Origin: a virus
Taxonomy: Duplodnaviria; Heunggongvirae; Uroviricota; Caudoviricetes
IMG/VR virus record: IMGVR_UViG_2563366840_000001
Strand: one strand, 5' to 3'
Length of the DNA: 64,000 nucleotides
Shown here in pieces: positions 14,370 through 38,053 of this stretch; the stretch's first letter is position 1; every line of letters starts with the position of its first letter. The position numbers were made by a program, and so were the translations under genes. The notes beneath the pieces are model-generated. The model made no database searches and was not told where the DNA came from. It saw only the letters and a list, made by a program, of their open reading frames with translations.

Positions 14370-17300
14370 ATGAACAAGCTATCTATGGGTGTGTTTCGCT
14401 GTTCAAGTGTCAGCGAAATATTGAAATACATTAGGGCAATAACATCTCACCGAGCGCCGATTAAATACGGCGTGGAAAAGGTGGAAGGCAAAAGCTATGA
14501 CCGACTGCGCCGGGAGGCGAATCAGAAGGCGATAGATTTGCTTAATTCGCTGGTGGACGGCGCGACACTGACAGATGAACAGCGCCAGATCCTGGCCGGG
14601 TACACTGGTGAAGGCGGCATTGGCGGGTCCGTCTCCGAATATTACACACCAAAGCCTATCGCTGAAGGTGTCTGGGAGATCATGAAGCTCTACGGCGCGG
14701 ACGTAGGTAACACTCTGGAACCATCGGCGGGAACCGGCGTTTTTAATGAGACAAAACCGGTTGGTACGGTGATGACCGCGACTGAGATCAGCAGTGTTTC
14801 CGGTCGTATAAACCAGTTGTTACACCCGGAAGACAGCGTACAGATTTCCCCGTTCGAACAGCTGGCTATAAACACGCCTAACGATTCATTCGACCATGTT
14901 GTGGGTAACGTTCCGTTCGGCGGTCGTGATAACACACGCAACATCGATAAGCCTTACGCAGAAGAAACGGACATGGGGTCTTACTTCATGCTCCGCATGC
15001 TGGACAAGATAAAACCTGGCGGATTCATGTGTGTGATTGTGCCGCCGTCCATTGTTTCAGGTTCAAACATGAAGCGGTTACGCCTGCGCTTATCCCGTAA
15101 AGCTGAATTTCTTGGCGCTCACCGCTTGCCTACCGGTACTTTTGACGCAAACGGGACCAGTACAGTCGTTGATGTGGTGCTGATGCGCAAACATCCGGCA
15201 GAGATGGCTGAGAAAATCCCCCTGGTGGATGAAAGCACTCTTGAATCGGCAAATGTGCTTTGGCCAACGTTTATTTCTGGCAAGTGGTTTGAAAAGGACG
15301 GTCGCCGGTTTGTTCATGGCACCCAGGAAAAGGGCTTCCAGGGGCGTATTGAGGTTCGTGCCGACGGTCAGATTGATAACCAGGCTCTTAAAGCGAAGCT
15401 GATTCATCGTTTCGAAAGCCGTATCGACTGGTCTTTGCTCGATATGGCTGAACCGTCACCGACCGCAGACGTTGTTGGTGAAGGGGAAATGCGCCTGATT
15501 AATGGCGTATGGCAAAAATATGCTGGTGGTCGCTGGATTGAAGCTGATGCCGGGAAGGAACTTAAGATCGATGCTGCCAGTTATGGCGCGGATAGCTGGG
15601 AGGCTCTTCAGCGTAACCTGACTACAACAGAAGGCCGTCTCGGCATGACATTTACCCAGATGGCAAATGTCCGCGATAAGTACACCACATCAATCAGCGA
15701 CGATATGGTGCAGCTGGTGGACTGGATTAACAGCCAGCCTGAAAAATACCGTGAACGCTTGTATCGCGGGGCGATGATTGGCCGGATGTTAATTGAATAT
15801 CAGGACATGAAGGCCGCCGGGCATAGTGCTGAACAAATCGAACAGCAGCGCCTTTCTCTGGTATCCCGTTTGCAGGCAGAGATTGACCGTTTTGGTAACC
15901 CCGGTCGCGGTCCGATAGCGAAATTGTCGGGGAGCGGTGCGCGCGCCTGGTTTGCTTTCCGTGGTGCGATTAAGCTGGATGGCACTATTTCTGACGAGCT
16001 GACAGGAAAGCTGGTTACGCATGATTCCAGCGCCAGTTATGACTCCACCAGCTATCAGGACACCCTGCGTTATCTCTATAGCGATCTTACCCGCGATCCA
16101 ATCCAGCTCGATGATTTCCGCCTTGCGTTTACCGGCGAACTGCCAGCCAGTGATGAAGAGTTGCTTAATTTATTGGCCAGCACCCCTGGTATTGCGGTTT
16201 CACCGTATGGCGGGATTGTTCCGTTCGCCCGCGCCACCAGCGGCGACATTAACGAGATAGTGGCTCCAAAACAGGAATTTCTTGCCACACTCCCCGACGG
16301 TCCAGTAAAGAACAACGTCCTTAATCAGCTGGCAGCGATCGAAGAGAAGCGCATCAAGACGCCAGCAGAGAATATCCGCTTTAAGCTCAATAGCCGTTGG
16401 TTCGACCGCTCCGTCATTCTGGAATTTTTGCAGGAAAACGGCTATCCGGATCTGCGCTATGTGCAGTCAGTGCAGCTGGAAGGCGACGAAATGGTTTCTG
16501 ACACCTATCACGGTGGTGATGGTCTGTTCGTCGGGCACCGATACGGTGTCGTCCAGCGCAAGGATAAAGAAACAGGCGAGATCCGCTACGAGTGGGACCG
16601 TAAATCAGGTGAAAACGCGACCGGGTTCCCGGCACAGCTGGAAAAGTATCTCAATGGTGCGCGTATCGGTGGCAAAGATAGCGCGACGGCGAACGGCTAC
16701 CGCGAGCAGATGGCACTGCTTGAGGACCAGTTCAATAAGTGGATCAAGACGCACGATCGCTACGATGAACTGGTTGCCAAATACAACGATGTGTTCAATA
16801 GCAATATCCCGTATGAACACTCTGGCGATCCGCTTGGGTTGAAGGGATTAAGCGGTAAGCGCCAGCCATTTGATTACCAGAATAGCGAAGTGCGCCGACT
16901 GTCCGAAGATGGGCGCGGCATCCTGGGCTTCGGCACCGGGCTGGGTAAAACTACGACCGCGCTGGTGCTTGAGGCGTTCAACTATGAGAACGGTCGCTCC
17001 ACCCGTACTGCGTATGTAGTGCCTAAATCAGTGCTGGAAAACTGGTATTACGAAGCAAAAGAATTCCTGAGTGAAGAGGCATTCAGTAACTACCTGTTCG
17101 TCGGTCTTGATGTGCTGATGGATGGCGATCAGATTCGCCAGGTGCCGGTGCTCGATGAGAACGGTAAACCTGTTCTTGGTACTGATGGCACTCCAGTTAT
17201 GCGCGATGCCCTAAAACTGGCAGATGAAGCCACTATCACGGCGCGGATGAACGCGATCCCGCACTCAAATTACCGTGCAGTCGTGTTTACCAAAGAACAA

Positions 17301-20300
17301 TACGCCCGCATTCCGCTACGTGATGACACCGTAGATGAGCATGCACAGGATATGCTTTATGACTTCGTTGCCGCCGGGCGCGTAGCCAGCGCAATGGACT
17401 CCGACTCCCACCGCAAAGAGGCCGCGCGTCGCCGGGTATTGTCGGAGTATTCAGATACCGGCACCGAAAAAGCAGAGAAGTATCCGTACTTTGAGGATAT
17501 GGGCTTCGATAGTGTGATCGCTGACGAAGGTCACAACTACCGCAATAGCTATAAAAATGGTCGCGAAGCGTCACAACTGGCCTATCTGCCCACCAGCGCG
17601 GTGGCGCAATCGGCGCGGGATATGGCAATTAAAAACGCGTACCTGATGAAAAAGAATGGTGGGCGCGGACCGGTTCTCCTGACTGCAACGCCAGTCGTTA
17701 ACACCCCGATCGATGCATACAACATGCTTTCTCATGTGCTGCCGAAGGAATACTGGCAGAAGATGGGGATCTACGGTCCTGATGACTTCGTTAAATTCTT
17801 CGGCAAGACCAGGCTGGAAACGGTACAGAAAATCAGCGGTGAAGTTGAAGAAAAAATGGCGCTGGTGGGCTTTGAAAACCTTGATGCGCTGCGCGGCATA
17901 TTCCATCGCTGGACAACGCTTAAAACGGCGGAAGACGTTAAGGATACCGTGGAGATCCCGGAACTGGACGAACACCAGCAGGATGCACCACTTACGGAAG
18001 AACAACTGGCGGCGTATGAAGAATTGCGTCAGCAGGCGGAAGCGGCAGCCAAAGCCAACAATGGCGTAACGACCTCGGTCAATGAAGACGGCGTGATTGA
18101 GCACGAGAAAGCCCGTCCGATCTTCTCAATAATCAGGGATATGGACCGCGTATGTACTGACATGGACCTGTACTATCGCAGGATCACCTATCGTTTCCTG
18201 CCGGAGTACGCCGATGCGGTGCAGCAGCTGGCGGACAGTTTGCCTAAACAAGCCACCAGCGAAGACGACGACAGTGATGATTCGATCACGCAGCAATCGC
18301 AATACTCCCTGATAGATAAGGGCGAGTTTATTCAGTTGCAGGTACCGGAAGCATTTGAGCAGGAAGTGAATAAGCGCCTGGCCAGGTTTGGCATTGACGA
18401 ACAGACCGTAACTCACCCCGTTACGCCCAAATACGCGAAGCTGATTGCCACGCTGAAGGAGTTTTTCCCGGAAGGTAAGCAAATCATCTTCACCGATGAA
18501 AAAACGCAACACCAGAAGCTCAAGCGCATTATCTGCAATGCTCTTAACCTTGAACCTTCAAAGGTGGGGATCCTGAATGCTCAGACGGTTGCCGAGGCAG
18601 GTAAAACCGGTAAGAAACTGAAAGCGGTTAAACCACCGAAAGAGCTACCGGATGAACCAACAGATGCACAGATAGCGAAATACAACGAGCAAATGGCTCT
18701 GTATGACGCCTATATCGCGCAGCAAAATGAAATGTCGCTGGGTGGGCTGGAAAAGATTGCTGCCGACTTCCAGGAGGGCCGGACTCCGATCATCATCTGC
18801 AACAAAAAGGCAGAGGTGGGTATCAACCTGCATCGAGGAACGACTGACATCCATCATCTGACGTTGCCATGGACACCAGCCAGTATCGCACAGCGTAACG
18901 GTCGCGGTGCCCGAGTTGGTTCCAACCGTGCAAGCGTTCGCGTTCACTACTACTGCGGCAAGGGTTCTTTCGATGAATACCGACTGAAGACGCTGAAGCG
19001 TAAAGCAGGCTGGATCTCCGATATCCTCCGCTCAGATAAGTCTGAAATGGAGAACGCCGACGCCAACGATATGATCGAAATGCAGATGTATACCGCTAAG
19101 GATGATGGCGAACGTCTGGCAATGATGCAGGTTCAAATGGATAAGGCGAAAGCCGCGCAACGCGCTCGCCAGAAAGAACAGGCTACTATCGACCTTCAGA
19201 ACTACATCAAGGCGCAGCACGCAGCTGGCGAGGATGTGGAGGTACTTACCGCTGAATTAGAGCGAAGCAAAGCGGAACTTGAAAAGACCACCGCCGAGGT
19301 AGCTAAATTCAAACAGGCGGTAATGGCCAAAGCAGCTGATAACGCAGACTGGAAGGCCCGCTGGGGGAGCGTCCATCACACAGACCGTATGTTGTTAGCA
19401 CAGTATCGCGCGTCGTTGAAAAACGCCATTCAGCGCAAGGCTAATATCTCTCAAGCCATCTCCCGCTATGAGAAATTATTGAACCGTACTCAGAAGGCCG
19501 CGACGGATATCAAACGCCTGCGCCCGCTGGTGGAGGATGCAATAAATAAAGGCATTCTGGATGTTGATCCTGACCTGGTTAACCATGCGAGTGAGTTCCT
19601 TGTTATCGGCGATCGCTCATGGCGTGTAGGCCAATACTACGATTGTGCCGGTGATATCGTTCGCATTAAGTCGCTGGACTTCGACAGCCAGCGCGCAGAC
19701 GTGGAGATCATCTTTACCTTCAAAGGCACCAAATCGGGTAACTGGGATGTGAAGACGCTGGATAAACAGGTGGATGTAACTCCCGATGAAGATGCTGTTA
19801 TGCAGAAAATCAGTGGTGGCGTCTCCATCGCCGGGATTAACGACATCATTTCCTGTGACGATTTCTACCGTTTCCAGCAGCGCGGCATGATCAAAATAAC
19901 TGACTCGTACGGCGTTCAGACTACAGAGTCAGGCTATAGCATTGATTTTGTTGGTACCTATACGGACCCACTGAAGCATGCGGTTTACCCGGATCGCCGT
20001 GACGGCGCGCTGAAGTCGTCAATTGCAAAATGGGTGCTTGGTATGATGTCGGAAGGGAATAACCGCCAGATCCGTTCGGCAGAAACATTCCTGGTTGAAT
20101 TGTTTGGCTCCAATTATGGCGATGTAATCGCGTCATACGGAGATACGCTATCCCCTGAAGCAATTCAGGAGAAAATAGCGGATGCGATCGCCAGAATGCC
20201 GGAAAAAACAAGCCAGGGGGCTACTCGTAACGGGGATTCTGAACTTGAAGTCACCAATGCCATTTTCGGTACCAATGAGTTCCGGGGGTCAGATTATGAG

Positions 20301-21137
20301 ATCACCACAGCACAGTTTGGCACCATTGGCATTTACAGCAATAAAGCCGAGATCAAGCAGGCAATGGACGCAGCAAGCGCGCGCATCGCAGCAGAACGGG
20401 AAGCCAATCTGAATCATGCAGTCGCCGCGCTGACTCAATCGTGGGTAACAGCAATCAGGGAGGCCGCCACCACAGGGAAAATCACACCTGCAATAGCGGA
20501 TGTCGTAAACGACGGCTCTAAATTTATGGATGCCTATCAAATGGATGCGGTGAAGTTGCCATCAGCCTATGGTCAACTCAGCTATCGCATGACCTACAAC
20601 CTGGTATCAATGTTTTCCGACCTTGCCATCCTTGGGCTGGTGGATCTTAACGAGGTTACGCCGGAATTGCTCAGCATGCGCAAGAATCATGTGGAGATAT
20701 TGCAGAGAATTAACACGGTTCTTGCCGGGCGCACCGATGAAGAGAAACAGGCCGACGCTGATCGGATAAACCTAGCCCTTGGCAACATCACGGAGGAAGA
20801 GATTGCCGCCAGAAACGAGAAACAAGAAGAGTTATCATCAATACAGGGTGATGCCACCAGCATAGCTCAGTCTCTTGGTCTGAATTATCGCGTATCCACC
20901 GCCGACCTGAAGATGATGTACGCACCAAAATTCGCCGCTGGCGAGGTATTTGGGCTTCAGGAAGCCTCAGGCATGAAAGGCGTTCTTTTCCGTGCGAAAG
21001 ACGCAATCAAGGCGAAATTCGGCGCTCGCTGGCTGCCAGCGAAGGCGAAGAACAGCGATTTCCCGGGTAACTGGTGGATTATCGAGACAAAACACAACGT
21101 GGCGGACGTTCTGGCCGTCATCCAACAATACGCATAA
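14370..21137 (+). CDS. darB: DarB antirestriction protein (N6-adenine methyltransferase plus helicase domains)
   Basis: 2255 aa; methyltransferase-like motif HVVGNVPFGG, helicase Walker A GFGTGLGKTT and DEGH box; size identical to P1 DarB. Confidence 0.9.
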   Translation: MNKLSMGVFRCSSVSEILKYIRAITSHRAPIKYGVEKVEGKSYDRLRREANQKAIDLLNSLVDGATLTDEQRQILAGYTGEGGIGGSVSEYYTPKPIAEGVWEIMKLYGADVGNTLEPSAGTGVFNETKPVGTVMTATEISSVSGRINQLLHPEDSVQISPFEQLAINTPNDSFDHVVGNVPFGGRDNTRNIDKPYAEETDMGSYFMLRMLDKIKPGGFMCVIVPPSIVSGSNMKRLRLRLSRKAEFLGAHRLPTGTFDANGTSTVVDVVLMRKHPAEMAEKIPLVDESTLESANVLWPTFISGKWFEKDGRRFVHGTQEKGFQGRIEVRADGQIDNQALKAKLIHRFESRIDWSLLDMAEPSPTADVVGEGEMRLINGVWQKYAGGRWIEADAGKELKIDAASYGADSWEALQRNLTTTEGRLGMTFTQMANVRDKYTTSISDDMVQLVDWINSQPEKYRERLYRGAMIGRMLIEYQDMKAAGHSAEQIEQQRLSLVSRLQAEIDRFGNPGRGPIAKLSGSGARAWFAFRGAIKLDGTISDELTGKLVTHDSSASYDSTSYQDTLRYLYSDLTRDPIQLDDFRLAFTGELPASDEELLNLLASTPGIAVSPYGGIVPFARATSGDINEIVAPKQEFLATLPDGPVKNNVLNQLAAIEEKRIKTPAENIRFKLNSRWFDRSVILEFLQENGYPDLRYVQSVQLEGDEMVSDTYHGGDGLFVGHRYGVVQRKDKETGEIRYEWDRKSGENATGFPAQLEKYLNGARIGGKDSATANGYREQMALLEDQFNKWIKTHDRYDELVAKYNDVFNSNIPYEHSGDPLGLKGLSGKRQPFDYQNSEVRRLSEDGRGILGFGTGLGKTTTALVLEAFNYENGRSTRTAYVVPKSVLENWYYEAKEFLSEEAFSNYLFVGLDVLMDGDQIRQVPVLDENGKPVLGTDGTPVMRDALKLADEATITARMNAIPHSNYRAVVFTKEQYARIPLRDDTVDEHAQDMLYDFVAAGRVASAMDSDSHRKEAARRRVLSEYSDTGTEKAEKYPYFEDMGFDSVIADEGHNYRNSYKNGREASQLAYLPTSAVAQSARDMAIKNAYLMKKNGGRGPVLLTATPVVNTPIDAYNMLSHVLPKEYWQKMGIYGPDDFVKFFGKTRLETVQKISGEVEEKMALVGFENLDALRGIFHRWTTLKTAEDVKDTVEIPELDEHQQDAPLTEEQLAAYEELRQQAEAAAKANNGVTTSVNEDGVIEHEKARPIFSIIRDMDRVCTDMDLYYRRITYRFLPEYADAVQQLADSLPKQATSEDDDSDDSITQQSQYSLIDKGEFIQLQVPEAFEQEVNKRLARFGIDEQTVTHPVTPKYAKLIATLKEFFPEGKQIIFTDEKTQHQKLKRIICNALNLEPSKVGILNAQTVAEAGKTGKKLKAVKPPKELPDEPTDAQIAKYNEQMALYDAYIAQQNEMSLGGLEKIAADFQEGRTPIIICNKKAEVGINLHRGTTDIHHLTLPWTPASIAQRNGRGARVGSNRASVRVHYYCGKGSFDEYRLKTLKRKAGWISDILRSDKSEMENADANDMIEMQMYTAKDDGERLAMMQVQMDKAKAAQRARQKEQATIDLQNYIKAQHAAGEDVEVLTAELERSKAELEKTTAEVAKFKQAVMAKAADNADWKARWGSVHHTDRMLLAQYRASLKNAIQRKANISQAISRYEKLLNRTQKAATDIKRLRPLVEDAINKGILDVDPDLVNHASEFLVIGDRSWRVGQYYDCAGDIVRIKSLDFDSQRADVEIIFTFKGTKSGNWDVKTLDKQVDVTPDEDAVMQKISGGVSIAGINDIISCDDFYRFQQRGMIKITDSYGVQTTESGYSIDFVGTYTDPLKHAVYPDRRDGALKSSIAKWVLGMMSEGNNRQIRSAETFLVELFGSNYGDVIASYGDTLSPEAIQEKIADAIARMPEKTSQGATRNGDSELEVTNAIFGTNEFRGSDYEITTAQFGTIGIYSNKAEIKQAMDAASARIAAEREANLNHAVAALTQSWVTAIREAATTGKITPAIADVVNDGSKFMDAYQMDAVKLPSAYGQLSYRMTYNLVSMFSDLAILGLVDLNEVTPELLSMRKNHVEILQRINTVLAGRTDEEKQADADRINLALGNITEEEIAARNEKQEELSSIQGDATSIAQSLGLNYRVSTADLKMMYAPKFAAGEVFGLQEASGMKGVLFRAKDAIKAKFGARWLPAKAKNSDFPGNWWIIETKHNVADVLAVIQQYA

Positions 21138-21856: not shown

Positions 21857-22015
21857 ACTTCCCCAAATAATGGCTGTTTGCTCGCCGAGCATCGCTCAAA
21901 GAAACACGATTATTCAAACATATAGATAGTGATAGTGCCCTCGTATAAGTGTGACAACTTCTGGCTCTAGTGGGCTGGGGAGGCGGCGCTTTGTTGCTAA
22001 ATGATCTGGTTTAAA

Positions 22016-23956
22016 ATGGATATGAAAAAAGAAACGATTTTTTCCGAAGTAGAAACGGCTAACAGCAAGCAACTGGCTGTGTTGAAAGCTAATTTCCCTC
22101 AGTGTTTTGATAAAAACGGAGCCTTCATTCAAGAAAAATTGCTTGAGATTATTAGGGCATCGGAAGTTGAACTCTCTAAAGAATCATACAGCTTGAACTG
22201 GCTGGGTAAATCTTATGCCCGTTTGTTGGCCAATCTACCACCGAAAACGTTGTTGGCAGAAGATAAAACTCATAACCAACAAGAAGAGAACAAGAACAGT
22301 CAACACCTGTTAATCAAAGGGGATAATCTCGAAGTATTGAAGCATATGGTTAATGCTTACGCTGAAAAGGTGAAGATGATTTACATTGACCCACCATACA
22401 ATACAGGTAAGGATGGGTTCGTTTATAATGATGATCGCAAATTTACACCTGAGCAGCTTTCTGAACTAGCAGGCATCGACCTCGATGAGGCTAAACGCAT
22501 ATTAGAATTTACCACCAAGGGGTCAAGCAGTCATAGTGCATGGCTGACATTCATTTACCCACGCCTTTATATTGCTCGTGAATTAATGAGAGAAGACGGG
22601 ACTATTTTTATTTCTATTGACCATAATGAGTTCAGTCAATTAAAACTAGTTTGCGACGAGATCTTTGGTGAGCAAAACCATGTTGGGGATCTAGTATGGA
22701 AAAATGCAACTGATAACAACCCTTCAAATATCGCTGTAGAGCATGAATATATTATTGTTTACACAAAAAACAAAGAGCAGCTTATAAGTGAGTGGAAATC
22801 TAATATCTCCGATGTAAAAAACTTACTTGTCAACATAGGTGAAGAATTTGCATCAAAATACACTGGCAATGAACTTCAGGAAAAATATACCCAGTGGTTT
22901 CGTGAACACAGATCTGAATTATGGCCTCTTGACCGATACAAATATATAGACAAAGACGGCATCTATACTGGTAGTCAGAGCGTCCACAACCCCGGAAAAG
23001 AGGGTTACAGATATGATATTATACATCCAAAAACTAAGAAGCCATGCAAACAACCTCTTATGGGGTATCGTTTTCCATTAGATACAATGGATAGGCTTCT
23101 GTCTGAAGAAAAGATCATCTTCGGTGATGATGAAAACAAAATTATAGAACTAAAAGTTTATGCTAAGGATTACAAACAGAAATTAAGCTCCGTTATCCAT
23201 CTTGATGGGCGTGTTGCAACGAACGAACTTAAAGAGCTGTTCCCAGAAATGACTCAACCATTCACAAATGCTAAAACTATAAAATTAGTAGAAGATTTAA
23301 TATCTTTTGCATGTGATGGAGAGGGTATTGTTTTGGATTTTTTTGCTGGGTCAGGAACTACAGCGCATACAGTTTTTAATTTGAATAACAAAAATAAAAC
23401 GTCGTATCAGTTTATTACAGTTCAACTAGATGAACCTACAAAAGATAAATCTGATGCCATGAAGCATGGCTATAATACAATATTTGACTTAACAAAGGAG
23501 CGTTTAATTAGGGCGTCTAAAAAAAATAGGGATCAGGGGTTTAAGGTATATCAACTAATGCCAGATTTTCGCGCTAAAGACGAATCAGAACTTACACTGT
23601 CTAATCATACATTCTTTGATGATGTTGTCTTGACGCCTGAACAATATGACACTCTATTAACTACATGGTGCCTGTATGATGGCAGTTTGCTAACAACACC
23701 TATTGAAGATGTTGATCTTGGTGGCTACAAAGCACATTTGTGCGATGGTCGTCTGTATTTGATTGCACCTAATTTTACTAGCGAAGCATTGAAAGCGTTA
23801 CTTCAAAAGGTGGATTCAGACAAAGACTTTGCTCCAAACAAAGTCGTGTTTTATGGCAGCAACTTTGAAAGCGCAAAGCAAATGGAACTCAATGAAGCAC
23901 TAAAAAGTTATGCTAATAAAAAATCTATTGAGTTAGATTTGGTGGTGAGGAACTAA
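22016..23956 (+). CDS. mod: Type III restriction-modification methyltransferase (Mod), EcoP1I-like
   Basis: N6-adenine MTase motifs DPPY and FFAGSGTT; start uncertain between ATG 22016 and 22022 (track 22001); AT-rich coding sequence. Confidence 0.93.
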   Translation: MDMKKETIFSEVETANSKQLAVLKANFPQCFDKNGAFIQEKLLEIIRASEVELSKESYSLNWLGKSYARLLANLPPKTLLAEDKTHNQQEENKNSQHLLIKGDNLEVLKHMVNAYAEKVKMIYIDPPYNTGKDGFVYNDDRKFTPEQLSELAGIDLDEAKRILEFTTKGSSSHSAWLTFIYPRLYIARELMREDGTIFISIDHNEFSQLKLVCDEIFGEQNHVGDLVWKNATDNNPSNIAVEHEYIIVYTKNKEQLISEWKSNISDVKNLLVNIGEEFASKYTGNELQEKYTQWFREHRSELWPLDRYKYIDKDGIYTGSQSVHNPGKEGYRYDIIHPKTKKPCKQPLMGYRFPLDTMDRLLSEEKIIFGDDENKIIELKVYAKDYKQKLSSVIHLDGRVATNELKELFPEMTQPFTNAKTIKLVEDLISFACDGEGIVLDFFAGSGTTAHTVFNLNNKNKTSYQFITVQLDEPTKDKSDAMKHGYNTIFDLTKERLIRASKKNRDQGFKVYQLMPDFRAKDESELTLSNHTFFDDVVLTPEQYDTLLTTWCLYDGSLLTTPIEDVDLGGYKAHLCDGRLYLIAPNFTSEALKALLQKVDSDKDFAPNKVVFYGSNFESAKQMELNEALKSYANKKSIELDLVVRN

Positions 23957-23958
23957 TC

Positions 23959-26871
23959 ATGTCAAAAGGGTTCACTCTCGAAAAGAACTTGCCGCATCAG
24001 AAAGCAGGAGTCGATGCGGTGATGAATGTTTTTGTTTCCGCAACACCTCACCTGACGGATAATGTTGCTGTTCGCCTTTTAGCTAATCCTGAACTGAAGC
24101 TGTCTGAACAACAATACTACAACAATATAAAAAATGTTCAGGCGTTCAATGGTATTGCGCACTCAAAAGATAATCACAATGCTAAAAGCAACATCATTGA
24201 TGTTTCTATGGAGACAGGTACAGGCAAGACGTACACCTATATCAAAACTATTTTTGACCTGAATAAATCATTTGGTATTAACAAGTTTATCATCATTGTT
24301 CCGACTCTATCTATCAAGGCCGGAACCGTTAACTTTTTAAAAAGTGATGCTTTAAAAGAACACTTCCGGGATGATTACAAGCGTGAGCTGAGAACTTACG
24401 TTGTTGAAAGTCAGAAAAACGCTGGCAAAAATACAAAATCGTATATGCCTCAGGCTATACATGATTTTGTTGAAGCAAGTAACTTCAATAAAAAATATAT
24501 ACACGTTCTTGTTATTAACTCAGGAATGATCAACTCTAAGTCTTTAACGGATACTTACGATACTGGCTTGCTTGATAATCAGTTTAATACTCCAGTTGAC
24601 GCGCTCAGAGCTGTAAAACCATTTATCATCATTGACGAACCACATAGATTTCCTACTGGTAAAAAAACATGGGAAAACATAGAGAAATTTAACGCACAAT
24701 ATATTATCCGCTATGGCGCAACCTTTAGCGAAGGCTATAAGAACCTGGTTTATCGTCTTACAGCCGTGGACGCATTTAACGATGATCTCGTTAAAGGTAT
24801 TGATGCATATATTGAGGATATAGTCGGCGATGGTAACGCAAACCTCAAATTCGTCAAATCTGACGGAAAGGAAGCTACATTTGAACTGAATGAAAACAAC
24901 AACAAAAAATCGTTTAAGTTAGCTAAAGGTGAATCACTGTCTAAGACGCATAGTGCGATCCATGATTTAACTCTTGATGCTTTAAACAAGAGCACAGCAG
25001 TGTTGAGTAATGGTATTGAGTTGAAGATTGGTAGCTCAATAAATCCCTATTCTTACGATCAGACACTCGCTGATAACATGATGCGTAAGGCTGTCAAAGA
25101 ACACTTTAAGTTAGAAAAAGAACTTCTGACACAAAGGCCACGCATAAAGCCTCTTACTCTTTTCTTTATTGACGATATTGAAGGCTATCGTGACGGTAAT
25201 GATATTTCCGGAAGCCTGAAGACCAAATTCGAAGAATACGTTCTGGCAGAAGCTAATGAACTGTTAAAAACAGAGCAAGATGCGTTTTATAAAAACTATC
25301 TTGAAAAAACAGTCACAAATATATCTTCCGTTCATGGTGGTTATTTCTCAAAAGATAACAGTGATAAGGATGATAAAATCGAGCAGGAAATCAACGAAAT
25401 CCTTCATGACAAAGAGCTTTTGCTGTCTTTAGATAATCCCCGTCGGTTTATTTTCTCAAAATGGACGTTGCGTGAGGGGTGGGATAATCCTAATGTTTTT
25501 CAGATCTGTAAGCTCCGTTCGAGCGGTAGTACCACATCTAAGCTTCAAGAGGTAGGGCGCGGTTTGCGTCTTCCTGTGAATGAATACATGTGTCGAGTGA
25601 AAGACCGCAATTTTACCCTTAAATATTATGTTGATTTTACAGAAAAGGATTTTGTTGACTCACTTGTTAAAGAGGTCAACGAGAGTTCTTTCAAAGAAAG
25701 GGTTCCAAGTAAGTTTACTCAAGAGCTTAAGGAACAAATCATGGCTCAGTATCCTGAGCTTTCATCCAGAGCACTAATGAATGAACTTTTCAATGATGAA
25801 ATCATTGATGACAATGATAATTTCAAAGATTCAGATGCCTATAGCCGCTTAAAATCCAAATATCCAGCAGCATTCCCTATAGGAGTGAAACCTGGTAAAA
25901 TCAAAAAAGCTACTGATGGAAAAAGACGCACTAAAATGCGTGTTGGTAAGTTCAGTGAGCTGAAAGAACTATGGGATTTGATCAATCAAAAAGCGGTGAT
26001 TGAGTACAAAATAAACAGTGAAAGTGAATTTTTATCCATTTTCAAGTCATTCATGCTCGAAGAAACAGAACGATTTACCAAATCAGGCGTTCATACTCGC
26101 ATTGATAAAATTTACATCCACAATGATATGGCAATGTCGAAAAGCATTGTCAGTGATGACGATGACTTTGCTAAGCTGAACACAATGAGCTATCGAGAGT
26201 TTCTCGATAACTTATCACAGACTATTTTTGTTAAACACGGTACTTTACATAAAGTTTTTTGTGATATAAAAGACACTATTAATATCACTGAATACCTTAA
26301 TATTCAAACAATCAGAAAAATTAAATCTGGTTTTAGTAAGTATTTGTTGAACAATTCGTTTAATAAATTCAGCCTCGGATATAATTTGATTTCGGGTTCA
26401 ATTCATCCTACAAAGTTCACAAATGCTGATGGTAATCCTCTAGGCGAGGTATTATCAAGTGATCTTGGTGTATTGCAGGATAATGCAAAAGCACCATTAG
26501 ATACTTATCTTTTTGAAGAAGTTTTTTATGATTCAGAGCTTGAAAGGCGTAATATAACAGATAGAGAGATCCAGTCTGTTGTTGTTTTTTCAAAGATACC
26601 GAAGAATTCTATTAAGATCCCGGTAGCTGGTGGATACACTTACTCACCCGATTTTGCTTATGTTGTAAAAACAGCGGAAGGTGATTATCTTAATTTTATC
26701 ATTGAAACAAAAAACGTAGATAGTAAGGATAGTTTACGGCTTGAAGAAAAACGGAAAATTGAACATGCCCAAGCGCTTTTCAATCAAATAAGTCAGTCTG
26801 TTAAAGTTGAATTCAGAACGCAGTTTGCTAATGATGATATTTATCAGTTAATCAAGAGCGCATTACCATAA
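23959..26871 (+). CDS. res: Type III restriction endonuclease (Res), EcoP1I-like
   Basis: 970 aa; helicase motifs ETGTGKT and IIIDEPH; immediately follows mod. Confidence 0.93.
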   Translation: MSKGFTLEKNLPHQKAGVDAVMNVFVSATPHLTDNVAVRLLANPELKLSEQQYYNNIKNVQAFNGIAHSKDNHNAKSNIIDVSMETGTGKTYTYIKTIFDLNKSFGINKFIIIVPTLSIKAGTVNFLKSDALKEHFRDDYKRELRTYVVESQKNAGKNTKSYMPQAIHDFVEASNFNKKYIHVLVINSGMINSKSLTDTYDTGLLDNQFNTPVDALRAVKPFIIIDEPHRFPTGKKTWENIEKFNAQYIIRYGATFSEGYKNLVYRLTAVDAFNDDLVKGIDAYIEDIVGDGNANLKFVKSDGKEATFELNENNNKKSFKLAKGESLSKTHSAIHDLTLDALNKSTAVLSNGIELKIGSSINPYSYDQTLADNMMRKAVKEHFKLEKELLTQRPRIKPLTLFFIDDIEGYRDGNDISGSLKTKFEEYVLAEANELLKTEQDAFYKNYLEKTVTNISSVHGGYFSKDNSDKDDKIEQEINEILHDKELLLSLDNPRRFIFSKWTLREGWDNPNVFQICKLRSSGSTTSKLQEVGRGLRLPVNEYMCRVKDRNFTLKYYVDFTEKDFVDSLVKEVNESSFKERVPSKFTQELKEQIMAQYPELSSRALMNELFNDEIIDDNDNFKDSDAYSRLKSKYPAAFPIGVKPGKIKKATDGKRRTKMRVGKFSELKELWDLINQKAVIEYKINSESEFLSIFKSFMLEETERFTKSGVHTRIDKIYIHNDMAMSKSIVSDDDDFAKLNTMSYREFLDNLSQTIFVKHGTLHKVFCDIKDTINITEYLNIQTIRKIKSGFSKYLLNNSFNKFSLGYNLISGSIHPTKFTNADGNPLGEVLSSDLGVLQDNAKAPLDTYLFEEVFYDSELERRNITDREIQSVVVFSKIPKNSIKIPVAGGYTYSPDFAYVVKTAEGDYLNFIIETKNVDSKDSLRLEEKRKIEHAQALFNQISQSVKVEFRTQFANDDIYQLIKSALP

Positions 26872-28946: not shown

Positions 28947-29978
28947 CTAATCGCCATCTTCCAGCAGGCGCACCATTGCCCCTGTTTCACTATCCAGGTT
29001 ACGGATATAGTTCATGACAATATTTACGTTGGTCCAGCCACCAGCTTGCATGATCTCCGGTATTGAAACTCCGGCACGGGCCATATCTCGCGCGGCTCCG
29101 ACACGGGCACTGTGTCCAGACCAGGCCAGGTACCTCTGGCCAGAGTCATCCTTAGCCCCGTAAATCAATCGGTGAGTTGCTTCAAAAATCCCTTCCAGGG
29201 CGCGAGTTGATAGCTGGCTGGTGGGTGATGGCGAGGCAACACCATTTTTTCTGACCCGGCAAAACAAGTAGTTATTCGGATCATCAGCCACACCAGAGAC
29301 AGAAATCCATCGCTCGACCAGTTTAGTTACCCCCAGGCTAAGTGCCTTCTCTACACCTGCGGTGCTAACCAGCGTTTTCGTTCTGCCAATATGGATTAAC
29401 ATTCTCCCACCGTCAGTACGTGAGATATCTTTAACCCTGATCCTGGCAATTTCGGCTATACGTAACAGGGTGTTATAAGCAATCCCCAGAAATGCCAGAT
29501 TACGTATATCCTGGCAGCGATCGCTATTTTCCATGAGTGAACGAACCTGGTCGAAATCAGTGCGTTCGAACGCTAGTGCCTGTTTTGCACGTTCACCGGC
29601 ATCAACGTTTTCTTTTCGGATCCGCCGCATAACCAGTGAAACAGCATTGCTGTCACTTAGTCGCGGCAGCCCGGACCGACGATGAAGCATGTTTAGCTGG
29701 CCCAAATGTTGCTGGATAGTTTTTACTGCCAGACCGCGCGCCTGAAGATATAGAAGATAATCGCGAACATCTTCAGGTTCTGCGGGAAACCATTTCCGGT
29801 TATTCAACTTGCACCATGCCGCCCATGACCGGCAAACGGACAGAAGCATTTTCCAGGTATGCTCAGAAAACGCCTGGCGATCCCTGAACATGTCCATCAG
29901 GTTCTTGCGAACCTCATCACTCGTTGCATCGACCGGCAATGCAGGCAAATTTTGGTGTACGGTCAGTAAATTGGACAT
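28947..29978 (-). CDS. cre: Cre tyrosine recombinase
   Basis: 343 aa, MSNLLTVHQNLPALPVDATSDEVRKNLMDMF...; near-identical to Cre with a few substitutions. Confidence 0.99.
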   Translation of the reverse strand: MSNLLTVHQNLPALPVDATSDEVRKNLMDMFRDRQAFSEHTWKMLLSVCRSWAAWCKLNNRKWFPAEPEDVRDYLLYLQARGLAVKTIQQHLGQLNMLHRRSGLPRLSDSNAVSLVMRRIRKENVDAGERAKQALAFERTDFDQVRSLMENSDRCQDIRNLAFLGIAYNTLLRIAEIARIRVKDISRTDGGRMLIHIGRTKTLVSTAGVEKALSLGVTKLVERWISVSGVADDPNNYLFCRVRKNGVASPSPTSQLSTRALEGIFEATHRLIYGAKDDSGQRYLAWSGHSARVGAARDMARAGVSIPEIMQAGGWTNVNIVMNYIRNLDSETGAMVRLLEDGD

Positions 29979-30396
29979 TTGACACTCAGATAATGGTTTT
30001 AAGTAAAGTGTACAGGATCGGCTCTGCCTTTACCTGTTTATGGTTCTCGTCATAGAAACGCCAACGACCGCGACTGCGTTCTATCTTTTCTTCACCGCGC
30101 GATAATGACAGTTGACAACTATCACGATCAAACCCTTTTGCCCGCCAGTAACCACGATTTTTCTCAAGCTCAAGATGAGTGGACACTTTAGCAGCTGAAT
30201 ATCCCATTTTTCACCTCTGATTGATTGGTGGTGCTAAGTGCGCTACGCGAAATCTGGAGCACTAACACTGCCAACATTTCGCAGATTTTACGTAGCGCAA
30301 CCTTGATCAAATGATCAAGTGATCACTATTTGACCTGGTAAGGTATTGAACTGTATGGATTTACAGGTAAATTGATCATGTTCAATAACCCTTAAG

Positions 30397-30430
30397 ATAA
30401 CTTCGTATAATGTATGCTATACGAAGTTAT
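30397..30430. other. loxP site
   Basis: Exact ATAACTTCGTATA-ATGTATGC-TATACGAAGTTAT 34-bp sequence. Confidence 0.99.
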
Positions 30431-31131: not shown

Positions 31132-31983
31132 ATGATAAATTATGTCTACGGCGAACAACTGTACCAGGAGTTCGTCAGCTTCAGGGATCTCTTTCTAAAA
31201 AAAGCTGTTGCACGCGCCCAACACGTTGATGCCGCCAGCAACGGTCGTCCTGTACGCCCGGTTGTCGTTCTACCGTTCAAAGAAACTGACAGCATTCAGG
31301 CTGAAATTGATAAATGGACTTTAATGGCGCGGGAACTGGAACAGTACCCAGACCTCAATATCCCAAAGACTATTTTATATCCAGTGCCTAACATCCTTCG
31401 CGGTGTGCGTAAGGTTACAACTTATCAGACAGAGGCTGTGAACAGCGTCAACATGACCGCTGGCCGCATTATTCATCTGATTGATAAGGACATTCGCATC
31501 CAAAAAAGCGCGGGGATCAATGAGCACAGTGCGAAATACATAGAGAACCTGGAAGCAACAAAAGAGCTAATGAAGCAGTACCCGGAGGATGAAAAATTCC
31601 GTATGCGCGTACACGGCTTTAGCGAAACAATGCTGCGCGTCCATTACATTTCTAGTAGCCCTAACTACAATGATGGTAAATCAGTTAGTTACCATGTGCC
31701 GCTATGTGGTGTGTTTATCTGCGATGAAACTCTCCGTGATGGAATTATCATCAACGGTGAATTCGAGAAAGCAAAATTTAGCCTTTATGACTCCATAGAA
31801 CCGATCATCTGCGACCGCTGGCCGCAAGCAAAAATATATCGCCTGGCAGATATTGAAAATGTAAAAAAACAAATTGCCATCACTCGCGAAGAGAAAAAGG
31901 TTAAGTCAGCCGCATCAGTTACGCGCAGTCGTAAAACCAAGAAGGGGCAGCCAGTAAACGACAACCCCGAAAGCGCGCAATAA
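31132..31983 (+). CDS. c1: C1 master repressor
   Basis: 283 aa, MINYVYGEQLYQEFVSFRDLFLKKAV...; matches P1 C1. Confidence 0.97.
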   Translation: MINYVYGEQLYQEFVSFRDLFLKKAVARAQHVDAASNGRPVRPVVVLPFKETDSIQAEIDKWTLMARELEQYPDLNIPKTILYPVPNILRGVRKVTTYQTEAVNSVNMTAGRIIHLIDKDIRIQKSAGINEHSAKYIENLEATKELMKQYPEDEKFRMRVHGFSETMLRVHYISSSPNYNDGKSVSYHVPLCGVFICDETLRDGIIINGEFEKAKFSLYDSIEPIICDRWPQAKIYRLADIENVKKQIAITREEKKVKSAASVTRSRKTKKGQPVNDNPESAQ

Positions 31984-32015: not shown

Positions 32016-33128
32016 TTATTCAACCGCCACCGGTTTTAACAAGCCAGCATCGAGCAGTTTACGCGTCAACCACTGCTGGCCTTTACCCGTTAATTGAGGC
32101 GTCAACCGTATCTGGTAGCCATCTTCATCATCCAGCACCACTTCTTTCACCGTGAAATACCCCGCGTTGATGTACTGCTGGAACGGCACATTTTTACGTC
32201 CACCGGACGCTATCAGGATGCCGTTCTCCCGTAACCAGGCAAACAGCGCGTTTTGCTTAAGTCCAACAACCTTTGCAAAATTCCCAATCAGGATCCCTTT
32301 AGCTACTGATACCCGGTCGGCAAAATCGACCTTAGGAGCGGCGGCTACCAGCTGCTGATTTAGCTGGTGGGCTTTCTGTTCCAGAAGCTGCTTTTTTTCA
32401 GCCAGTTCGGCAGCCAGGCGTAGGGCTTCTGGTAATGTTTGGGGGATTGCAACCGGTTGCTGTTCTTTTTGCCGGAAGTAGCTGTCTTCCAGTTTTTCAA
32501 AGAATGCCCATGCTTCATTTGTGTCCACGATCTTAGACATGCGTGCCGCTCCGCGCTCGGCCCAGAGAATTACCTGACTTGTATATTTGCTAACCAAGTG
32601 ACTAATAGTCACTAGCCTTTTAAATTCCTTTAATTTTGAACCAGTTAAGAGATAGTAATGCTTACCTTCTTCAAAGCGATCGGGGTTGCGAGACAAATTT
32701 TTACGAATATTCGCTTCATCGGTCCCATACCCTTTAGCAAGAGTCTCAGTTGTCACTACACGCACTCCCAGCCATTCCAGAACGGGAATTTCATCAGACT
32801 GATTCTGAACAACCACCAGCTCCGATTCCTGAACTGAAGGTGCATGAATTTTTTCTGATTTAACGTTAGTTGCTTTCATTCTGTGTGCCTCCTTGCGTGC
32901 TTCGGCTGCGACGGTTGCGTAATTCAGATGACCCTGTTCGAGCAGGTATTCGCGGATATCAGACAACAGAATGCGGTGAACAGCGTTCTTGTCCTTTCTC
33001 CGGTAAAGTTGTTTGGTGATCATGAAGTAGTTGGCTATAACGCCTGGTATATCCCTGGTACTGATACAGGCAGTGTGCTGTTCAATTGCCTCGATCATCT
33101 CTTCACGGGTGACTAATGACGTTCTCAT
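32016..33128 (-). CDS. Antirepressor-like protein (ORF6N plus KilAC/ANT domains)
   Basis: Central ORF6N-like segment NPDRFEEGKHYYLLTGSKLKEFKR and C-terminal ANT-like segment VPFQQYINAGYFTVKE. Confidence 0.65.
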   Translation of the reverse strand: MRTSLVTREEMIEAIEQHTACISTRDIPGVIANYFMITKQLYRRKDKNAVHRILLSDIREYLLEQGHLNYATVAAEARKEAHRMKATNVKSEKIHAPSVQESELVVVQNQSDEIPVLEWLGVRVVTTETLAKGYGTDEANIRKNLSRNPDRFEEGKHYYLLTGSKLKEFKRLVTISHLVSKYTSQVILWAERGAARMSKIVDTNEAWAFFEKLEDSYFRQKEQQPVAIPQTLPEALRLAAELAEKKQLLEQKAHQLNQQLVAAAPKVDFADRVSVAKGILIGNFAKVVGLKQNALFAWLRENGILIASGGRKNVPFQQYINAGYFTVKEVVLDDEDGYQIRLTPQLTGKGQQWLTRKLLDAGLLKPVAVE

Positions 33129-33705: not shown

Positions 33706-35190
33706 TCATTCATTAAGCCATGCCAGAGCTTCATCAACCTGCGCTTCGTCTTCGACGCTAAGCACTTCATCCTGGGGAACATAATCCGCCAGCATAGCGA
33801 AACAATATGTATCCCAATGGTCTGGTGAGTGCAGGTTGAGTTTTTTCTTCATATCCTCCTTACTCATCACCTTCCATTGACCTGCGGAGTTAATCCCTAC
33901 AGGGATTTTCGACGCTTCCTCAATAGTTTCATTACCCTTATCCAGTCTCATACGACCAGATTTTACGGCCTCTGCGGCTTGAACGTTGGCATAAGCACGT
34001 TTATCAAAGTACAGGCTCTTATCTTCACGGCTATGCATCTTTTTACCCCAGCGTATACGCTGTACGGTAATACCATAATACTCGTACATCAGATCCGCCG
34101 TTGCTTTACCCAGCCCATCACCGTCTATCGCTATGGTGATATTTGGGAATCGCTCAGGATTACATTCTGCGAAAATTTTGGCGGCAAGCTGCGTTTCTGT
34201 AACGTCTGTGTATTCCAGCATTCGATAGTTGATTACACGGCGTTTATTTCTCTGGCCGGACACCATCATGATATTGATAACGGACTTATCCCGTCCCGTA
34301 CCACCAGCAACGTCCACACATGCAAGCCAGCCCCATCCTTTGGCAATCTTGACTTTCCGCCGCGTCGCACGTTCAACCTCATCACGTCCAAGAAGGAAGC
34401 CATCCTGTGATTTAGGGAATAGTCCGCGTACCTTAATCATGTACATAGGGTTATCACGCCCGCCGTACTCCGCCAGCTTCATTTTGATAAATGCTGGCGT
34501 TACCAGCGGTGATTCCTCACTGTTAAGCGTGATCGCCGTATAAACGCCATCAGGGTTACCAGGACGCTTGGCCAGTTTATGGTGAGTATCGTAGAAATAG
34601 CCGCTTGGGCGTGTAGGCTGTGACAATAATAAGATGCGGTTATCCTGTCCGGTAAGAGCACCAGTGATGATACCGAAAGCTCTATCACTGACACCGGAGG
34701 CTTCATCGATAATATACAGAAGATGATCTGCGTGTTCACCGGCGAGAGCTTCTTCACTTCCCAGACGAAAGCCCTTCGGTACTACAGTCCATACACCTTT
34801 ACCAGTAACCTCATAGAAAGCGGTTTCTGTCAGAACAAAATAATCAGCAAGCCATGGAAAACGGCTGGTGGCAGTAGCCCAGTTTATCTTGATGTACTTG
34901 AATATACCGGTCATTACCTGCTGAATTTTGTTCGCAACGATAATGGCGCGGGCACCGGGATACATGATTATGAACAACATGATCATGATAGAAGTCATGT
35001 CTGATTTCCCGGTACCGTGACCAGACGAAACAGATGTCTTGCTACCCTGTTCCTGCACAGACTCAATAATCAGATCCTGCTGCCAGGTAGGTGTTTTGCC
35101 GAACAAAACATCAGCGGCAGCAATCCAGTCATAACGATATAGCGCCACCAGCTCGCGCCAACGTGGATCCGTTACGCAACTTCTGGCCAT
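33706..35190 (-). CDS. pacB: Terminase large subunit PacB
   Basis: 494-aa ORF overlapping the pacA stop; position as in P1. Confidence 0.85.
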
Positions 35191-36383
35191 TAATCATCAT
35201 CCCCGTATAGCTTGCGGGTAACTTCTTCGTCTTCCTCCTCGTCTTCGTCCAGGTCTTGTTCCAGCCATGGGTCGTTTGATACACCTTCAGTATCAACATC
35301 TCCATAACCGCCTGTATCAACGATATCGGCGATTTCTTCCCTACGCTGCTCAATCCACAATGCGGCATCGGCGCGGCGGTTGGCGGCCCGTTCTCGCGCA
35401 ACTTTGTCCAGATCTTCAAGAGAAGGGCCACCGACGGCTGTTTGCCTTTCCTCATCATCGGTATTGGTCTTAGGAGCACGCAGATCGGCTTTGATTTGCT
35501 CCAGCATCAGGGGCGGAACTTTCCCACCATGCGCCTCGATGAATTCAGCTGCTTCCAGCACTGACCAGTTATTTTCACGCTTTCGTTCGTATGCCAGCTT
35601 AACAATGCCAGCTTGCCCCATAGACAAAGCGTGCTTTTCCGCCTCCCGGCTTTCTTTTCGATAGTTATTCCGGATGCTGTAAATGGTGTTGATCAGACTG
35701 CTTATCTGCGCGGAACAGCTGTTTAGCATGCTCGCGATACGGTATTCAGGCGGAGTACCTCCATCATCGTCTTTTTGCTGATCGCGCATTTCCTGCACCA
35801 GGCGAATACACGTATCCCTGGCGTTCTCCAGCATAAGGAGATGAGAAAGAGACTTTTCAAGAAGAGTGGTTTCCAGAACATCGGCCCCGGACCGACGCAA
35901 CATAGCGCGCGCGGCCTTCCGCGCTTCAACGTTATCTATCAGGTAATCGCCAGCTTCGAATTCAAAGCGTTCACCATCATCATCCAGGGTGTCGCGTTCC
36001 AGACGATCACGTAAGGTCCGGTGGGCGCGGGTGATCACGTCATGATCATCTGAACGATCATTTATGCGCTTATTTTGGCGCTTCGCATTCTCGACTGCGG
36101 CACTGACAACGGCATTAACTCTCTGTTTTTCCGCTATTTCAGCCGCAATATGATCACCTGCATGTTGATCATTAGAGTGATCAATGATCATGCCTTTTAG
36201 TGGCTTCCTGACTGGCTTATTTGGCTTGCGGCTGTCCGCAGTCCTGGTGTCTTCTTTGAAGGCACGGAGATAACGACGTGCGGTATTAGGGTTAAGATTA
36301 AACTCGGCGGCATACTGTGCGATGGTGTAACCACCATCTCGCGCCAGGCGAGCAAAATTCTTCTTGTGATCGTCCCAGGTCAC
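35190..36383 (-). CDS. pacA: Terminase small subunit PacA
   Basis: 397 aa with acidic C-terminus; contains the pac hexamer cluster in its 5 prime third. Confidence 0.9.
36030..36190. other. pac packaging site (TGATCA/G hexamer clusters)
   Basis: Three to four TGATCA-type hexamers at 36004-36061 and four at 36151-36190 flanking a roughly 90-bp spacer, each containing a GATC Dam site. Confidence 0.85.
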
Positions 36384-36468
36384 TTATGCTTCCTTTCGTA
36401 AAAACTCTTTTTGACGCGAGGGTAACGAAAGTCACATGTCAAAAGGCCCGGAACGGGCAAGCAATCAA

Positions 36469-36921
36469 TCAGATACGTGCGGATGTGGCATTACCGTAAT
36501 GACGGTGCTGACGGGCCACCTTATTGAAAAGTTGACGCGCCATTACCCAAGGCTGGTGCTCCCGGCGTTCCTTTTCGTCCTGCGTCATATAGAGTTCGTT
36601 CTGGAGTTTTTCATCAAACCGGCGCGGAGCGCGGCTGCGGCGAAAGAATTCAGGATTCAGAGAGTGGATCTGAAATCTACGTGGGCGTGTACTGTCATCA
36701 ATCAAAACAGACGAATACTTAGACACAGCGATAGCCTTTAAGCGCAGATAAACATCGCGCTTATCGACATCCAGATGCGGGTATTCCTTTTCAAGAATTG
36801 CTGCGAGTTCTTTCGCTGATAGAAGAGATTTAGTGCGGATCATGTAATCCGCAATCTCGTACGATGTTATTCGTGAGTGATTTATTTCCATGAAGTGGCG
36901 TCCCTGCCAGTTAAGTAACAT
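36469..36921 (-). CDS. lpa: Late promoter activator Lpa
   Basis: 150-aa ORF (start may be the internal MEINHS) preceded by a C1 operator, between pacA and pdcB as in P1. Confidence 0.75.
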   Translation of the reverse strand: MLLNWQGRHFMEINHSRITSYEIADYMIRTKSLLSAKELAAILEKEYPHLDVDKRDVYLRLKAIAVSKYSSVLIDDSTRPRRFQIHSLNPEFFRRSRAPRRFDEKLQNELYMTQDEKERREHQPWVMARQLFNKVARQHRHYGNATSARI

Positions 36922-37009: not shown

Positions 37010-38053
37010 TCATCTAACGCTCGACGAATGACTTGTGATAGCGCCGACTCCAAGCGCGTAATCAAAGAACAATCGTTGATGCATCGCCAGCCTACCGTGC
37101 GTCTTCTCCCAATTATCGCGGTCACGCTCAATATCACGCTGGCATGACTGGCACAGAGGAATAGCATAAATGTCATGCGCGCATAATCGACTATGACGAA
37201 CGATATAAGGCGTAATGTGAGCGCCAGCTCCCGCAGCTCCACAGCCACAGCATGGACGGGAAGCCACAAAATCCATGTACTCGGGCAATTTTAGCGATTG
37301 AAGTTTTGGTATTTTGAAATGCGCCATGCTAGGGTCGGAGTCAACATCCACAGGGCATACTTTTGCACGCATCGGCGCGGCGCGTTCTTCCATCATCTGA
37401 ACATATGCTGTAGCGCGATCGTCATACGGGCGAATATCCGCCTCTTTCAGAGGTCCACTATCCTGCGGAGTAGCCTTCATCTTATTTATTGATATGCGGC
37501 AGACTTCTTCCGGCATCAGGTGCATCATGTTGCGCATGAAAGCCCACCAGCACAGCTCCTGAATACTTAAATCATGGCTATTTGAAAGGCCCATTTCCTG
37601 ACGGGCGACATCCAGTATCCAGTTAACGCGATTATTGTGCAGCGTTTCTTTCAGCTCATTAAAACCACGCATCCGGTAATGGTTATCGTGATGCCAGCAC
37701 AACAACACCGCGCTATTGTCTCGTTCAGCGTGGACAATATGGTTGTCACACCAACTACGATCTGCGGCCTGGCATTGACCCTCTTTCCTACGCAACCACG
37801 CAACCAGCGCGTCAATTCCACCAATACGGCGAAACAGTTCATCGCTGTTAAAAAACGGCTGCAACGCCTCATTTGTTGCCATGGTTTGCTCGGTAACAAC
37901 GAGGCCGTCTTCCATGTGCTCGATTAACTCACGCGGCACCGGCTCCATAATAAATTTACGGCCAGCCTCCACCAGCTTTCTGACCTCCTGATCCACTTTG
38001 AACGTGGCGAGGCCAAGCTCTTTCTGTACAAAGGGAGTAATTACGGCTTTCAC
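37010..38053 (-). CDS. pdcB: PdcB
   Basis: 347-aa Cys-rich ORF downstream of doc, as in P1. Confidence 0.7.

Follow-up and report, generated by a model that had tools for sequence, protein, structure and literature searches.

A probable P1-type packaging initiation site within pacA of a Punavirus-like phage-plasmid

A 161-bp segment within the gene pacA is very probably the site (pac) at which a P1-like phage-plasmid of the Punavirus type initiates packaging, to judge from its sequence, and nothing in that sequence speaks against this identity. The segment lies in a 64-kb stretch of viral DNA, which we will call the window. Its parts are as follows.

36030..36190, minus strand: pac site, from a gap-free alignment to P1 AF234172 90722-90882, about 161 bp
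36151..36190, minus strand: hexamer arm HEX4, TGATCA at 36190-85, 36183-78, 36171-66, and 36156-51
36116..36128, minus strand: predicted IHF-type site, mapped by alignment from the P1 annotation at 90784-90796
36099..36108, minus strand: predicted cleavage centre, transferred from the P1 annotation at 90804-90813
36032..36060, minus strand: hexamer arm HEX3, TGATCG at 36060-55, TGATCA at 36048-43, and TGATCA at 36037-32
36004..36009, minus strand: eighth hexamer, TGATCG, 22 bp past HEX3, outside the minimal pac and outside the range given in a preliminary description of this DNA

In P1, pac covers 161 bp of pacA and holds the seven TGATCA/G repeats of HEX4 and HEX3 as well as an IHF site and a site of cleavage in the centre; when the P1 hexamers were mutated synonymously, the titre was about 9-fold lower (PMC10028697, 2023). 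The window's segment is identical to that of bacteriophage P1 (AF234172/NC_005856, about 90722-90882) at 159/161 nucleotides, with the same spacing and no gaps, and all 42 of the 42 hexamer bases are unchanged. The likeness covers the place within pacA, the 4+3 hexamers and their spacing, and the sequence of the cleavage centre; also, in P1 as here, pac is flanked by lpa, LPpac, and pacB. The two differences from P1 are both synonymous: the window has T where P1 has C at 36150, which adjoins hexamer 4, and G where P1 has A at 36123. Thus, the match to the roughly 160-bp P1 pac that the preliminary description had recognized is borne out by the alignment, down to the seven unchanged hexamers. 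The site is the already known P1 pac: real but ordinary. (The P1 pac site is said to have been described by Sternberg and Coulby in 1987 and by Skorupski et al. in 1992 and 1994.)

The same description had proposed that clusters of TGATCA/G, each hexamer carrying a Dam GATC, flank a central region in pacA, with four hexamers on one side and three on the other. A scan for TGATCR (both strands were read over 35850-36400) agrees with this: there are seven hexamers within 36032-36190, four of them at 36190-36151 and three at 36060-32, with a 90-bp centre without hexamers separating HEX4 from HEX3. There is one GATC in each hexamer, and GATC is otherwise absent from the pac stretch. All seven hexamers are inside the pacA ORF (gene positions 194-352), and the pac segment as a whole is nucleotides 194-354 of this 1194-nt ORF, that is, in the 5' third of the coding sequence. 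As there are 78 TGATCR in the 64-kb window, 0.196 would be expected per 161 bp, and the Poisson probability of seven or more is 1.9e-9. This is the densest TGATCR cluster in the window, and in 200 dinucleotide-preserving shuffles the maximum per 161 bp was two (123 shuffles), three (75 shuffles), or four (2 shuffles). The eighth hexamer, beyond HEX3, is shared with P1 and is invariant in the 35 distinct pacA sequences from close relatives that are described below. In relatives at about 70% identity, there is a TGATCG or CGATCA near this place, but shifted (364, 390).

The putative IHF site is at the homologous position, between HEX4 and the cut sites, and reads AAACAGAGAGTTA in the window versus AAACAAAGAGTTA in P1. 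With the synonymous A>G at 36123, the IHF core is CAG instead of CAA, which gives two mismatches to the consensus WATCAANNNNTTR as compared to one in P1. We considered whether the altered core marks an unusual pac and rejected this idea because G and the A of P1 are about equally common: G is found in 17 of the 35 distinct pacA sequences, and exact-match scans of IMG/VR gave G in 23 contigs and A in 20. HU can reportedly replace IHF (a result attributed to Skorupski et al., 1994).

For the cleavage centre, the P1 record places the primary pac cuts of the upper strand at 90806/07 and 90812/13 and those of the lower strand at 90804/05 and 90810/11. In the window, the predicted main cuts are accordingly at 36106/36105 and 36100/36099 in the pacA-sense strand and at 36108/36107 and 36102/36101 in the opposite strand. 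Over 35 bp around the annotated cuts, the window and P1 are the same, which is a statement of sequence identity only. When P1 virion DNA was sequenced, two main termini were found 6 bp apart, in agreement with the mapping by Sternberg and Coulby (PMC5557969). A remark on PhageTerm in the same paper, that coverage is higher past the packaging site, is a hint as to the direction of packaging.

The genes that would act on this site are in the same order as in P1 (lpa-pacA-pacB) and are listed here with their neighbourhood:

37010-38053, minus strand: DUF968 gene (pdcB in P1)
36469..36921, minus strand: lpa, late promoter activator for LPpac (Pfam BPP1_LPA, E = 3e-57), positioned as in P1
36419..36437, minus strand: late promoter LPpac, annotated in P1, with -22 element ATGTGACTT and -10 element TACCCT
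35190..36383, minus strand: pacA, pacase (terminase) subunit, 397 aa, GTG start, 96% amino-acid identity to P1 PacA over the full length
33706..35190, minus strand: pacB, second pacase subunit, 494 aa, 89% amino-acid identity to P1 PacB over the full length

Further neighbours on the minus strand are doc, phd, and a humD-like gene. The intergenic DNA between lpa and pacA, including LPpac, is 100% identical to P1. At the nucleotide level, pacA is 96.1% identical to that of P1, 98.5% to that of RCS47, and 100% to that of the E. coli IncY plasmid pJIE250_3 (NZ_MN510445.1), and it was found in a further 578 PLSDB plasmids, mainly from Escherichia. In Pfam, PacA has only a sub-threshold helix-turn-helix (HTH) match, and a Pfam search of PacB and C1 gave no match, so the identification of these proteins rests on homology to P1. 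As pacA, pacB, lpa, and LPpac all match P1, the window is part of a P1-like (Punavirus) phage-plasmid. Among the large ORFs listed for the 64-kb window, there is none of the size of the phage methylase gene dmt (754 aa). Just after lpa and before LPpac, at 36438-36457, there is a small hairpin rich in GC with a run of T behind it (CCCGTTCCGGGCCTTTT in pacA sense). It resembles a terminator placed between lpa and pacA; P1 has it in identical form, and the relatives at about 70% identity retain part of it.

A true homologue of pac might now be idle, if the element has become defective as a plasmid prophage and has ceased to package DNA. The window covers only part of the element, and many P1-like plasmids carry insertions or deletions. 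Also, pJIE250_3, which is the closest pacA record, is 78 kb long as compared to 94.8 kb for P1, so shortened derivatives do exist. However, none of pacA, pacB, and lpa is truncated or interrupted by stops, LPpac and the seven hexamers are intact, and there is no decay in the pac module. We therefore consider an idle site to be improbable, and we prefer to read the segment as a pac site that would be used together with its intact cognate genes.

If this pac site works as it does in P1, then late in lytic growth, Lpa would activate LPpac and so the expression of pacA and pacB. The PacA/PacB pacase would bind both hexamer arms, HEX4 and HEX3, while IHF or HU would bend the DNA between the arms, and staggered cuts would be made in the centre over about one helical turn (predicted 36099-36108). 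Cutting is expected to need methylation of the hexamers' GATC adenines by host Dam or by a phage methylase. A newly replicated, under-methylated pac would be bound but not cut, which would limit the cutting of pac copies within a concatemer. Headful packaging would then proceed in one direction from the cut, along the direction of pacA transcription and towards lower coordinates (pacB, then c1, then loxP); in P1, packaging runs in the direction of pacA transcription towards loxP. What is said here of binding, of the need for methylation, of the cut positions, and of the direction of packaging is all carried over by analogy with P1, for which this mechanism was reportedly worked out by Sternberg and Coulby (1987, 1988, and 1990) and by Skorupski et al. 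(1992 and 1994).

Another explanation is that the hexamers are a mere by-product of the PacA protein, which has repeated Asp-His, Asp-Gln, Asp-Arg, and Ile/Val-Ile dipeptides there, and that they have no role as DNA. As the pac stretch is coding, we also redrew its synonymous codons while holding the PacA protein fixed (5000 recodings). The protein alone does lift the expectation, to a mean of 3.4 hexamers in the pac stretch, and two of the aspartates (Asp68 and Asp72, whose GAT codons belong to two of the left-arm hexamers) are invariant across the family's PacA alignment, in a segment that is otherwise poorly conserved. However, all 7 of the 7 possible sites are realized, and this top count was reached in only 11 of the 5000 recodings. 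The P1 mutations mentioned above point the same way: synonymous changes in the hexamers leave the protein as it is and still lower the yield of P1 (PMC10028697).

Variation among close relatives also bears on this question. We compared 39 full-length, ungapped pacA sequences (from IMG/VR, genome, and phage loci) and the window's own, which together make up 35 distinct sequences. The sample was drawn by exact matches to a 24-mer at gene positions 250-273, where variation is thereby suppressed, so variation in the pac centre can only be understated. The 60-bp bin that contains the pac centre is the most variable bin of the gene. Within pac, 1 of the 42 hexamer columns is polymorphic, versus 23 of the 119 other columns. 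The sole hexamer variant is a TGATTA in the fourth hexamer of HEX4, in one sequence, and HEX3 is invariant. At third codon positions, none of the 14 in hexamers varies, as compared to 13 of the 40 elsewhere in pac. When hexamer columns were compared to all other columns of pacA in these close relatives, Fisher's test was borderline (P = 0.052). Among named Punavirus phage-plasmids (RCS47, P7, SJ46, JL22, and pJIE250_3), pacA is 96-100% identical to the window's at the nucleotide level. RCS47 has hexamers identical to those in the window, and the pac regions of the group differ from the window's just by scattered synonymous changes, most of which lie between HEX4 and HEX3.

More distant relatives give stronger evidence for constraint on the hexamers than this test does. 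Distant PacA homologues were identified by a protein search, after which the encoding DNA was fetched, and a PacA-alignment scan of genome contigs gave 9 loci. (One locus, L009 from Xenorhabdus szentirmaii, has a broken frame with 12 stops and was left out of the codon alignment.) In a group from Klebsiella and Salmonella at about 70% identity, there are hexamers at the window's gene positions 201, 213, and 228 and at 324, 336, and 347. The hexamer columns of this group are 88% identical to the window's, as compared to 48-49% for the DNA between them and 70-71% for the remainder of pacA. (The protein match of Cronobacter phage JK004 is comparable, at about 70%.) As the hexamers are kept while the centre has diverged, we conclude that the hexamers are constrained as DNA and that the centre is not constrained in its sequence.

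Thus, we reject the idea that the hexamers are a by-product of the protein sequence, which we rate as extremely improbable. The recoding results, the invariant third positions, the contrast in the relatives at about 70% identity, the persistence of the hexamers in what is otherwise the least conserved part of the protein, the non-coding cluster in a divergent clade with five TGATCA upstream of pacA (see below), and the published mutations all stand against it. Hexamers that serve as the arms of a pac site remain our explanation for the cluster.

A third proposal, that the GATC cluster has some other role involving Dam or SeqA (origin-like sequestration, or an internal promoter controlled by methylation), has in its favour that clustered GATC sites act in these ways elsewhere and that the window also contains a Dam-regulated promoter cluster upstream of cre, but it is again hardly credible, as the homologous DNA of P1 has been functionally mapped as pac, the P1 record annotates no promoter there, and two clusters around a variable centre are in keeping with a recognition site that has two arms.

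The two arms of the pac site can be followed beyond the relatives at about 70% identity. In homologues from Pantoea (53%) and Xenorhabdus (about 30%, at 29-30%), clusters of 3-4 and 2-3 TGATCA are found at the homologous place, and these are the densest in their loci. More generally, the distant P1-family plasmid prophages (from Klebsiella, Salmonella, Enterobacter, and Cronobacter JK004 at about 70%, and from Pantoea and Xenorhabdus) have two TGATCA/G clusters that are 100-170 bp apart, which we regard as candidate pac sites. They differ from the window in having 3+3 or 3+2 hexamers rather than 4+3, and their centres are unrelated to the window's, also with regard to the IHF-like site and the cleavage sequence.

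We see about an even chance that the two-arm TGATCA layout with Dam sites is ancestral to the whole PacA family, from Escherichia to Xenorhabdus (about 30%), that the DNA between the arms has been freely replaced, and that in one clade an arm has moved to the non-coding DNA upstream of pacA. If so, then pac sites, and perhaps methylation-gated packaging, would be predictable from sequence across this family of phage-plasmids.

The clade in question, at 35-38% identity, comes from public sequencing-run assemblies. Its pacA is preceded by five TGATCA, which lie in non-coding DNA at a distance of 40-102 bp, and another three are within the gene:

L014, 2904-2966 and 3155-3188: TGATCA clusters
L015, 2898-2965 and 3171-3200: TGATCA clusters

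In this clade, an arm of pac may have been relocated or extended.

Outside of this family, the pac sites of P22, SPP1, and Sf6 have sequences unrelated to the window's pac. Also, no relation was detected between PacA and the small terminases of these three phages, as Pfam gives just the faint HTH match for PacA. P22, SPP1, and Sf6 do have pac within the gene for the recognition subunit, with imprecise cutting and one-directional headful packaging. Their pac sites are not known to be gated by Dam methylation.

Because this is a textbook P1 pac in a P1-like plasmid, with a pacA that is identical to a deposited sequence, the site counts for little as a discovery. Its use is in annotation, as it provides a predicted headful start (about 36099-36108) and an expected direction for the element. 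Together, the start and the direction of packaging indicate which neighbouring DNA is expected in the terminal redundancy. The comparison with distant PacA homologues, in which the hexamers are conserved, the centre is variable, and the layout is kept, is a modest but testable by-product.

On the side towards which packaging would proceed, the features are:

32016-33128, minus strand: 370-aa ORF with ORF6N and KilAC/ANT antirepressor domains, between pacB and c1
31132-31983, plus strand: c1, 283-aa ORF
30397..30430, plus strand: loxP, an exact 34-bp match

The loxP site is about 5.7 kb from the predicted cleavage centre, as compared to about 4.0 kb in P1. The distance is longer here because of the antirepressor-like gene between pacB and c1. 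In P1 and pJIE250_3, c1 directly follows pacB, but the window's arrangement is common to many other P1-like plasmids.

The second-densest TGATCA/GATC cluster in the window is also in this region, at 30304-30378 (sites 30304, 30312, 30320, and 30373), between loxP and the minus-strand gene cre (28947-29978). Its counterpart in P1 is annotated as "Dam methylation sites 1-3 in the regulatory region of cre." Relative to P1, there is an additional GATC in the window (GTGATCAC here, GTGACCAC in P1), which makes four sites instead of three. Finally, beyond cre, there are large plus-strand ORFs at 14370-21137, 22001-23956, and 23959-26871 (2255, 651, and 970 aa), which by length only are like P1 DarB and a type III mod/res pair.
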